This document shows, piece by piece, positions 16,453 to 17,826 of a stretch of 41,941 nt of DNA. Both the position numbers and the translations under genes were made by a program. This DNA is from a virus, in UHGV virus genome UHGV-2134446, one strand, 5' to 3'. A model generated the notes under the pieces. It had not been told where the DNA came from. It did no database searches and saw only the letters and a list, made by a program, of their open reading frames with translations. Within the stretch, counting starts at the first letter, position 1, and every line of letters starts with the position of its first letter.

Positions 16453-16557
16453 TAACATAAAATTGTCAATCCGTCTTATACAAACATTAGTTCCTCTTGT
16501 TTTCCGTTTAATTTAATAAGTATAATGTAAGTAAATTTTTAAAAAGGAGTTTTTAAA

Positions 16558-16971
16558 ATGTACGGCAATATGATTTTAGCTCAAAATGTAAACGCTGATC
16601 AAAATGGAAATGGTTTTTTCATTAATAATCCTACAAATAGCTTTTCTGTATTAAGTACTCCTACACTTCACAATTTAGCGTTGCTATTTAATATTTCTGG
16701 GATCGACCCTAAGCAAAGCCACAATTTGAAGTTAGTTCTAAGGAGTGAATCAATAGAAAGAATAGTTTTAAATGAAAATATTCCGGTACAAATTAATAAT
16801 TTTAATTCTCAAGACGATGATCCCAATACAGTTTTTTCCATGAATGCAAACATTGTATTAAATTCACTTCAAATTGACCACTTAGGAAGATTTGATCTGA
16901 TTTTGTATGTAGATGATAATGAAATCTGCTCATCACCATTGGTATTCACTCAAGCAAAAGCTTTACAATAG
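16558..16971 (+). CDS. Cassette gene A: unknown protein (137 aa), very AT-rich
   Basis: SD aaaaggag before ATG; own promoter (TATAAT near 16523); no recognisable family. Confidence 0.6.
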   Translation: MYGNMILAQNVNADQNGNGFFINNPTNSFSVLSTPTLHNLALLFNISGIDPKQSHNLKLVLRSESIERIVLNENIPVQINNFNSQDDDPNTVFSMNANIVLNSLQIDHLGRFDLILYVDDNEICSSPLVFTQAKALQ

Positions 16972-16980
16972 GTGGATTCA

Positions 16981-17532
16981 ATGACTGATTGTAAAAAAGA
17001 AGAGAGTACTAAAGTTGTAAGTGATAGCTCTAAAATAATCAATCCTAAAATACTTGTAACGCCACCTGCTAAAATCGAAACTGTTAAAATAAACTTTAAT
17101 AGTAAACCTACAATTGACCATTTTAAATTTGAAACTATCAACCCTTTAGGGCATAGAGTCGTTTTGAAAGAAAGTACTTGGACGGAACATGTAATTAATG
17201 ACCATCCAGATAGATCTTTTTACAATGATGAATTCAATTTTGGACAAATATTAAGCGTTATAACTACTCCCACTATAATAGTTGAAGATAAAGACTTTTC
17301 CGAAGAAAATGTTAGGATTAATTATTTCGGAAGTGCGATGATTAAAAATAATGGGCAATTTAAAATGAAAAGTGTTAAAATAGTAACAGAGGTATATGAA
17401 TCAGAAATTTCCTTTAATATTAAAGACGGTTCAACTTGGAATTACCAAGAAATGGTTACTTGTTTCGTCCAAAGTACAATGAATGAGGATTTAAACGATA
17501 GGGGGGTGCATTATGTACAAAATTCTTTATAA
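16981..17532 (+). CDS. Cassette gene B: about 60-aa unknown N-terminal extension plus C-terminal DUF4258-like domain (putative toxin)
   Basis: ATG 16981 with SD aggtgg overlapping stop of gene A; TWTEHVINDHPDRSFYNDE...SVKIVTEVYES resembles DUF4258 pattern (H..H..R ... vVITvY). Confidence 0.55.
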   Translation: MTDCKKEESTKVVSDSSKIINPKILVTPPAKIETVKINFNSKPTIDHFKFETINPLGHRVVLKESTWTEHVINDHPDRSFYNDEFNFGQILSVITTPTIIVEDKDFSEENVRINYFGSAMIKNNGQFKMKSVKIVTEVYESEISFNIKDGSTWNYQEMVTCFVQSTMNEDLNDRGVHYVQNSL

Positions 17533-17815
17533 AGATTTTATTGCTGATGCATCACTTTCGGTAAATTATAATGTTGACTATGATTATCTTACGTTTTACA
17601 ACAAATCGATTGGGGAAATTGACTATATTCAATCTACAGATCATATTTATCTGATAGTAGACTTAGATAACTCTTCAATTGTTGGAGCCAAGATCATGGG
17701 CTTGATGAATTACTTCTCGTTAGAAGAACTAAATGAATTAGAATATCCCTTTGTGGCTGACTCTATAAAAAAAATATATCATAGGATAGCAAAAACCCCC
17801 TACTCAAACGAGTAA
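17513..17815 (+). CDS. Cassette gene C: DUF2283-like small protein (putative antitoxin partner)
   Basis: LTFYNKSIGEIDYIQSTDHIYLIVDLDNSSIVGAKIMGL fits the DUF2283 D-x-D-x-x-G-x-IVG-x-EIL pattern; SD aggggggtg; overlaps gene B by 20 nt. Confidence 0.55.
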   Translation: MYKILYKDFIADASLSVNYNVDYDYLTFYNKSIGEIDYIQSTDHIYLIVDLDNSSIVGAKIMGLMNYFSLEELNELEYPFVADSIKKIYHRIAKTPYSNE

Positions 17816-17824
17816 GGGGTTTTT
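17791..17824. terminator. Bidirectional intrinsic terminator shared by cassette (plus) and endolysin (minus)
   Basis: aaaaa-cccctactc-aaac-gagtaagggg-ttttt, 9 of 10 bp stem. Confidence 0.8.
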
Positions 17825-17826
17825 GT

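Follow-up and report, generated by a model that had tools for sequence, protein, structure and literature searches.

We examined a three-gene cassette in the UHGV virus genome UHGV-2134446, a sequence of 41,941 nucleotides (nt) that we refer to as the window and whose positions supply all of the coordinates given here. The cassette consists of three tightly coupled open reading frames (ORFs) on the + strand, in the order A-B-C and ∼1.45 kb in extent, which we consider a candidate toxin-antitoxin-type module carried by a temperate phage. Its features are as follows.

16380..16557, + strand: cassette leader, comprising an upstream block, a putative sigma-70 promoter and the Shine-Dalgarno sequence of A

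16558..16971, + strand: gene A, 137 amino acids (aa), ATG start, DUF6941 family

16981..17532, + strand: gene B, 183 aa, ATG start, with a PBECR2-like, predicted BECR-fold core

17513..17815, + strand: gene C, 100 aa, divergent DUF2283-like

17790..17825, both strands: bidirectional intrinsic terminator, sharing sequence with the final codons of C and immediately adjacent to the endolysin stop codon (17827)

Each of the three genes has its own Shine-Dalgarno sequence. That of A is AAGGAG (16544–16549), that of B is GGTGG (16971–16975) and overlaps the TAG stop codon of A, and that of C is AGGGGGGTG (17500–17508); the reading frames of B and C overlap by 20 nt. The ORF list gives an alternative start for B at GTG 16972, yielding a protein of 186 aa, but we favour the ATG at 16981 because of the public homologues and the position of the Shine-Dalgarno sequence. 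Upstream of A lies a putative promoter, with a −35 element TTGTTT (16497–16502), an 18-nt spacer and a −10 element TATAAT (16521–16526). It is located within a leader block that is conserved among the Enterococcus loci: the block at ∼16455–16520 (TTATACAAACATTAGTTCCTCTTG...) and the −10 element are both conserved in L001, L002, L004 and L009, L numbers being our labels for the loci compared. An automatic consensus scan did not call this promoter, whose −35 element matches 3 of the 6 consensus positions, and for this reason we continue to describe it as putative.

At the other end of the cassette, the terminator has arms of 16 nt (17790–17805 and 17810–17825) that are 94% complementary and are separated by a loop of 4 nt. 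It has U-runs on both strands and is shared with the convergent endolysin gene. Its folding energy is −26.7 kcal/mol on the + strand and −26.4 kcal/mol on the − strand (z scores of −6.4 and −7.1), with none of 200 shuffled sequences folding equally well. The cassette (16455–17826) has a GC content of 0.302, lower than that of the late region (0.402) or of the window as a whole (0.387). Thus the signals on which the original prediction of this cassette was built (a promoter of its own, here putative, the Shine-Dalgarno sequences, the overlap of the A stop with the B Shine-Dalgarno, the 20-nt B/C overlap, the shared bidirectional terminator, and a base composition richer in AT than the phage backbone) are all present in the sequence. 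Rfam contains no family matching either the cassette or the repeats upstream of it, which are described below.

Pairwise comparison with two diverged Enterococcus copies gave ratios of nonsynonymous to synonymous substitution (dN/dS) of 0.14–0.34 across A, B and C, with values of 0.16–0.18 for A and 0.21–0.34 for B; one comparison of C was saturated at synonymous sites. Therefore, A, B and C are real coding genes under purifying selection.

Gene A had been described as belonging to no recognisable family, a description that we can now replace. It scores 32.1 bits against DUF6941 (PF22091), for which the cut-off is 27 (E = 1.6e-7, model positions 4–123 of 125), and its NCBI name is 'DUF6941 family protein'; it also matches phrog_5881, whose function is unknown. 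Its fold is probably all-beta and weakly resembles that of Ig domains, the match to a Robo2 Ig domain (E = 0.03) being a hint at most. Two candidate identities for A were rejected: it is not a SecB-like chaperone, given that there was no SecB match in Pfam, NCBIfam or Protein Data Bank (PDB) searches, and it is not a DNA-binding regulator, given that Pfam and NCBIfam detect no DNA-binding domain in it. A tblastn search with A against deposited phages found no match, and we found no paper mentioning DUF6941. We predict that A is the accessory third component of the cassette.

Protein B comprises a poorly conserved N-terminal extension, which we measure at ∼45 aa rather than the ∼60 aa first estimated, followed by a core spanning residues ∼48–180. 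A HMMER profile built from six B sequences and searched against 1.84 billion representative proteins recovered 42 relatives at E ≤ 1e-3, mostly 125–170 aa in length and matching residues ∼45–140 of B, in some cases to 180. The 43 aligned members of this family were each scanned individually against Pfam. PBECR2 was matched by 24 of the 43 (best E = 1.2e-7), typically over model positions 18–119 of 120; other matches were to PBECR3 (6 members) and MuF_C (5 members), while DUF4258 was matched by a single member, at E = 0.048. The original prediction had assigned B to DUF4258, and was correct as to the superfamily, that of the BECR-fold ribonuclease (RNase) toxins, but not as to the family, the nearest being PBECR2; DUF4258 belongs to a different, colicin-like BECR branch (bioRxiv 10.64898/2026.08.28.747851). 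Judged by sequence, B forms a clade related to PBECR2 without formally belonging to it.

The alignment of the B family is invariant at H70 and P97 (both 43/43) and nearly so at H75 and Y178 (both 42/43). Y115 is found in 41 of the 43 members, T66 in 40, R112 in 40 (with K in two more) and T160 in 40 (with S in two more), such that T or S occupies the last of these positions in 42/43. B from the window keeps both H70 and T160. PBECR domains are predicted to be metal-independent endoribonucleases (endoRNases) of the BECR fold, and a His in the N-terminal helix combined with a C-terminal Thr/Ser defines 5 of the 6 PBECR families (Iyer et al. 2017, PMC5512222). The B family matches this configuration with H70 and T/S160, the placement of these residues on the helix and strand being deduced from the alignment. 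We predict B to be a BECR-fold, metal-independent endoRNase toxin.

Relatedness to this group of nucleases suggests one role for B that differs from that of a toxin held in check in the lysogen. B could be an offensive or counter-defence phage RNase, used in infection or induction against, for example, host messenger RNA (mRNA), CRISPR RNA (crRNA) or the transcripts of a competitor, with C, and possibly A, restraining it until it is needed. This follows the idea of Iyer et al. for PBECR domains: PBECR2 was defined in polyvalent, MuF-fused and portal-fused phage proteins that are presumed to act as injected effectors, with solo phage versions noted as well (PMC5512222). The triplet form of the cassette, furthermore, always travels with phages or plasmids. 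However, B is never fused to virion proteins here, and the cassette is not part of the structural operon but is encoded on the other strand, between a (putative) promoter and a terminator of its own. An overlapping partner gene is present in every copy examined, an arrangement characteristic of toxins that the producing cell must keep from poisoning itself, and two-gene relatives are found in non-phage chromosomal contexts. We are therefore sceptical of an offensive role for B, and consider it improbable.

The assignment of C comes by way of its relatives. The proteins occupying the same position in L019 and L022 score 23.8 bits and 24.4 bits against DUF2283 (PF10049), the cut-off for which is 23, as does the partner protein of the two-gene locus L015 (24.2 bits); in all, DUF2283 is matched by 5 of 12 aligned C-type proteins. 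Using hhalign, the Enterococcus C clade aligns with the other triplet C proteins at a probability of 99.3% (E = 1e-20), and all of the triplet C proteins align with the doublet partners at a probability of 81% (E = 1.2e-5). The earlier statement that C fits DUF2283 is thus upheld through the same-position proteins and the profile comparison, but not through a direct Pfam match of C from the window. We regard C as a divergent DUF2283-type protein, an assignment that is supported indirectly, and a low-confidence model suggests a beta core at residues ∼16–66 followed by a C-terminal helical tail. DUF2283 is annotated as a predicted antitoxin (YuzE; PMC12521503), and C is probably the antitoxin or immunity partner of B. 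We note that the 'DUF2283' of PMC4755241, which concerns the FseA/QseM regulators of integrative conjugative elements, looks unrelated to the C family.

Co-conservation of A, B and C had been set beforehand as a test of the original prediction. An arrangement of a DUF6941-like gene, a B-like gene and a small overlapping ORF, in that order, is present in all 8 of the B clades nearest the window that we examined.

Enterococcus copies: L001–L010

Clade P0007: L032/33

Clade P0011: L030/31

Clade P0012: L016–18

Clade P0013: L019

Clade P0014: L020/21

Clade P0018: L022/23

Clade P0026: L012

L012 is the most distant of the loci compared gene by gene, with identities to the window of 29% for A, 27% for B and 24% for C. 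The triplets usually lie next to phage lysis genes, and they recur in many phages that are only distantly related to one another. In the eight triplets measured, the gap between A and B is 1–14 nt, the overlap between B and C is 20–47 nt and the GC content is 0.27–0.31. All B relatives examined have a small downstream ORF that overlaps the B gene at its 3′ end; the product of this ORF is 90–107 aa long in the triplets, compared with 77–80 aa in the two-gene versions. The adjacent, co-transcribed genes of a type II toxin-antitoxin system thus have their counterpart here in the 20-nt B/C overlap, the single (putative) promoter, the single terminator and the retention of the pair in all relatives examined.

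More distant relatives show a sister layout, in which the B and DUF2283-like genes are preceded by a gene for a DUF3467-like protein of ∼92–100 aa. The similarity of this protein to DUF3467 is weak, and the proteins of the sister cassettes are annotated as hypothetical. Four such cassettes were located.

L024, 173–1086: Staphylococcus phage phiSP119-2 (MK075005.1)

L025: Staphylococcus nepalensis plasmid pSNJS1102 (NZ_CP017468.1)

L028, 276–1207: an IMG/VR phage, beside the lysis genes

L029, 2721–3622: a second IMG/VR phage, beside the lysis genes

A common origin of A and the DUF3467-like upstream proteins was considered and rejected, the hhalign probability being 0.05%. In chromosomal contexts, B and DUF2283 are also found as doublets with no third gene (L013 and L015). 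Given these three layouts, with DUF6941, with a DUF3467-like protein or with neither, we conclude that B and C form an invariant core to which the upstream gene is exchangeable. An upstream gene of this exchangeable kind is what one would expect were the third gene to adjust how the module is triggered or what it is specific for. One form that this could take is a three-component prophage abortive-infection system, in which DUF6941, or its DUF3467-like substitute, would sense a component of an invading phage and release the RNase from its DUF2283 inhibitor; if so, exchange of the sensor gene upstream would direct the same toxin-antitoxin core at a different target. We consider this specific version a real candidate, yet on balance an unlikely one.

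The doublets bear on another explanation, according to which the module is not toxic at all: B would process a specific RNA, with A and C as cofactors, and the module would modulate host or prophage expression as in lysogenic conversion. The two-gene relative in L015 (positions 1–830) directly follows the 3′ terminus of a gene of the flagellar hook/rod type, and a colicin E5/D-like BECR RNase is consistently linked to the flagellar operons of Firmicutes, with a possible regulatory role (Zhang et al. 2012, PMC3482391). We nevertheless think such a processing role very unlikely, since an obligatory coupled partner and horizontal mobility better fit the logic of a toxin and its immunity, and since DUF2283 partners are annotated as predicted antitoxins.

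Assignment of the surrounding genes to PHROGs places the cassette between the lysogeny genes and the lysis genes.

11514, + strand: repressor

11832, + strand: ImmA-like protease

13314–14468, + strand: integrase

17827–18612, − strand: endolysin

18907–19299, − strand: holin

20054–22471, − strand: tail fibre

This is the usual lysis/moron/attP/integrase layout of temperate Firmicute phages, circularly permuted here, and the cassette has the same orientation as the lysogeny genes and the opposite orientation to the late genes. The co-conserved triplet and the PHROG map together bear out the earlier view of a discrete operon in the moron region between the lysis genes and attP/integrase.

Among Enterococcus prophages, a block of nucleotide homology extends from ∼16380 (∼180 nt upstream of A) to the terminator at ∼17826. 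Outside it the neighbours vary: the Enterococcus cassette adjoins three types of lysin (Amidase_2, GH25 and Amidase_3) and differing tail modules. Since the homology ends at the leader and the terminator, and the neighbours are varied, we conclude that the cassette moves as a module of ∼1.45 kb. Exact-sequence matches of its proteins come from Enterococcus casseliflavus, E. innesii and the IMG/VR contig UViG_3300011896_000005, while narrow locus scans matched solely the same contig and E. casseliflavus NBRC 100478. Word-indexed homology searches returned 7 clusters for B and 3 for C, the only named sources being Enterococcus. Megablast of the region against deposited phages gave no match, and tblastn with B against deposited records found one distant phage and one plasmid.

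Location and mobility are also the evidence by which to judge whether the pair is purely an addiction system, stabilising the prophage or plasmid by post-segregational killing with no anti-phage role, and with A as a regulator or enhancer. The toxin-antitoxin-like anatomy is as expected for such a system, and one relative is on a plasmid. There are also precedents in the three-component toxin-antitoxin systems pasABC and omega-epsilon-zeta, which have a third, regulatory or enhancer gene. Yet the lysis/attP moron hotspot, and the shuffling of the cassette among unrelated phage backbones, are typical of accessory or defence cargo, and A lacks a detectable DNA-binding domain. Addiction as the sole function therefore seems to us rather unlikely, though it is compatible with, and does not exclude, the explanation that we prefer.

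That explanation, which we hold with somewhat more belief than doubt, is that the cassette is a toxin-antitoxin-type module with an accessory protein, which would be expressed in the lysogen and would act in phage exclusion or prophage maintenance. The conserved catalytic residues, the coupled partner, the prophage or plasmid location, the possession of a (putative) promoter and a terminator, and the orientation lead us to assign the part of RNase toxin to B, that of protein antitoxin to C and an accessory part to A. On this proposal, an Enterococcus casseliflavus-type temperate phage would carry the cassette as a moron, in the form of a mobile three-gene operon between its lysis genes and attP/integrase. 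B would be a solo PBECR2-like, BECR-fold, metal-independent endoRNase, for which the candidate targets are transfer RNA (tRNA), ribosomal RNA or mRNA. C, translationally coupled to B, would bind and neutralise it, much as a type II antitoxin or an immunity protein does, and A might be a sensor or adaptor linking release of the toxin to a trigger, or else a stabiliser of C. The cassette is probably expressed in the lysogen, given that it has its own (putative) promoter and is oriented with the lysogeny genes and against the late genes. Its effect there may be the exclusion of superinfecting phages by abortive infection, stabilisation of the prophage, or both.

Several results weigh against this interpretation. 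The first group concerns the family assignments: neither B nor C from the window has a Pfam match, B giving none to PBECR2, and even at E ≤ 10 there is no match of B to DUF4258 or of C to DUF2283. PHROGs likewise yielded no significant match for either protein. The PBECR2 match scores are mostly 13–24 bits, below the gathering score of 27.1, although the best E-value among them extrapolates to ∼32 bits, above this cut-off, by the relation of E to bits in the other matches. A second group concerns structure. A BECR fold would show as an alpha + beta core in which an N-terminal helix precedes a sheet of 4–5 strands, but the AlphaFold2 model of B has a predicted local distance difference test score (pLDDT) of 37.7 and is unusable. 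That of C has a pLDDT of 52.8, both alignments being shallow, and comparison of the C model with the PDB by Foldseek returned noise (best E = 0.44); the reading thus draws no support from structure. Searches of the PDB by sequence and by profile, using A, B and C as well as the A family, the broader families of B and C and the DUF3467-like proteins, likewise gave no significant match. Thirdly, the features expected of established systems are partly missing. Pfam and NCBIfam detect no helix-turn-helix, ribbon-helix-helix or AbrB-type domain in A or C, and with C having no recognisable DNA-binding domain, classic type II autoregulation is not evident. There is likewise no precedent for a defence phenotype among the models of PADLOC-DB v2 or NCBIfam, neither of which gave a meaningful defence-model match: PADLOC-DB v2 returned chance-level HerA matches for B alone (12 bits) and none for A or C, and NCBIfam a chance-level SecF match for C alone. 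The PBECR domains themselves were first proposed as offensive phage effectors and not as toxin-antitoxin toxins (PMC5512222). Finally, any role given to A is pure conjecture, and distant relatives either lack A or have the unrelated DUF3467-like protein in its place.

Several further observations were made on the surroundings of the cassette. Between the ImmA-like protease and the integrase lies an ORF of 294 aa (12338–13222, + strand) that matches phrog_5319 ('outer membrane protein') along with several PHROGs that have no known function, and that could be a further cargo gene of the lysogeny module. Between the integrase and the repeat array, the region 15600–15900 is dense in terminator-like hairpins on both strands. 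There are 7 terminator-like sites in 15500–18200, compared with 1.1 expected, most of them within 15600–15900, and this cluster is probably the attP or moron-boundary region.

The repeat array itself, upstream of the cassette at 15973–16450, consists of two tandem units of ∼265 bp that are 82–90% identical. Each unit contains an internal hairpin of 15 bp (for example, 16301–16315 with 16334–16348), and on the minus strand the units have a promoter-like site, TTGAAA-17-TACATT (16396..16368), and a terminator (16185..16155). Such a unit looks like a small RNA (sRNA) gene. In E. casseliflavus NBRC 100478 (L026, 5153–5375) a single unit is found downstream, not upstream, of the cassette, and from this placement we conclude that the unit is a separate cargo element that shuffles independently. 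At the same locus (L026, 4840–5411), homology to the window extends beyond the terminator for ∼115 nt, taking in the 3′ end of the endolysin gene (window 17827–17940), and then breaks, to be followed by the sRNA-like unit and then by a different, complete lysin gene. This junction looks like the remnant of a recombination event that moved the cassette between phages.

A scan for tRNA genes took in L001, L002, L004, L006 and L008 and left out L003, L005 and L007. In each of the five scanned loci, two prophage-borne tRNA-Met genes flank the cassette (∼4639–4712 and 6317–6390), both of them on the minus strand; the window has no tRNA. We considered whether a duplicated tRNA marks the boundary of the cassette and rejected this, given that the two tRNA-Met genes are 81% identical and absent from the window, making them neighbouring cargo and not att repeats. 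The terminator hairpin beside the downstream tRNA carries CCCCCTACTC..GAGTAAGGGG, which it has in common with the window hairpins at 16156–16193, 16429–16451 and 17790–17827.

How, then, does the cassette compare with known systems? Its closest parallel in organisation is the DUF4258/DUF2283 pair (PF14076 with PF10049), which likewise combines a small BECR-fold RNase-type toxin with an adjacent DUF2283-type partner, is found on mobile elements and is experimentally uncharacterised. DUF4258 is listed with unknown activity and without references (Gerdes 2025). The cassette differs from these pairs in that B groups with PBECR2, C has an additional C-terminal tail, predicted to be helical, and a conserved DUF6941 gene precedes the pair. 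PBECR2 (PF18810) is in turn the best Pfam neighbour of B, with which it shares the His and Thr/Ser active-site configuration and a phage-borne setting, but B stands alone as a protein, encoded in a moron operon together with a partner gene of its own, and is not a MuF, portal or polyvalent virion domain. B from the window and each relative, when scored individually, also fall below the gathering score of PBECR2, and the Enterococcus clade adds the N-terminus of ∼45 aa.

The toxin-antitoxin-chaperone (TAC) systems, pasABC and omega-epsilon-zeta resemble the cassette in that one operon encodes a toxin and its antitoxin along with a small third protein, and the longer C tail of the triplets loosely recalls the chaperone-addiction tails of TAC antitoxins. 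In contrast to the third components of these systems, A is a DUF6941 protein that is not SecB-like and is no DNA-binding regulator, and it is encoded first, not last. The DUF3467-like triplets share with the cassette the B and C families, the overlap geometry and a location either next to lysis genes or close to where the deposited phage record starts, and differ in that their upstream gene is unrelated to A. The papers that we found mentioning PBECR or DUF4258 describe no such operon.

Our conclusion from these comparisons is that the pairing of a BECR toxin with DUF2283 is of an already known, predicted kind. What is new here is a PBECR2-like toxin clade in a predicted toxin role, a deeply conserved DUF6941 third gene, and the replacement of that gene by a DUF3467-like gene in the sister cassettes. 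The cassette gives the uncharacterised DUF2283, DUF6941 and solo PBECR2-like proteins a genetic context in which they can be tested, and at ∼1.45 kb it is small enough for cloning and testing to be straightforward. It also connects a prophage arrangement of the toxin-antitoxin type with nucleases that were originally described as a weapon injected by phages. Should the cassette act as we propose, Enterococcus prophages would be carrying cargo that blocks other phages, which bears on phage therapy against enterococci.

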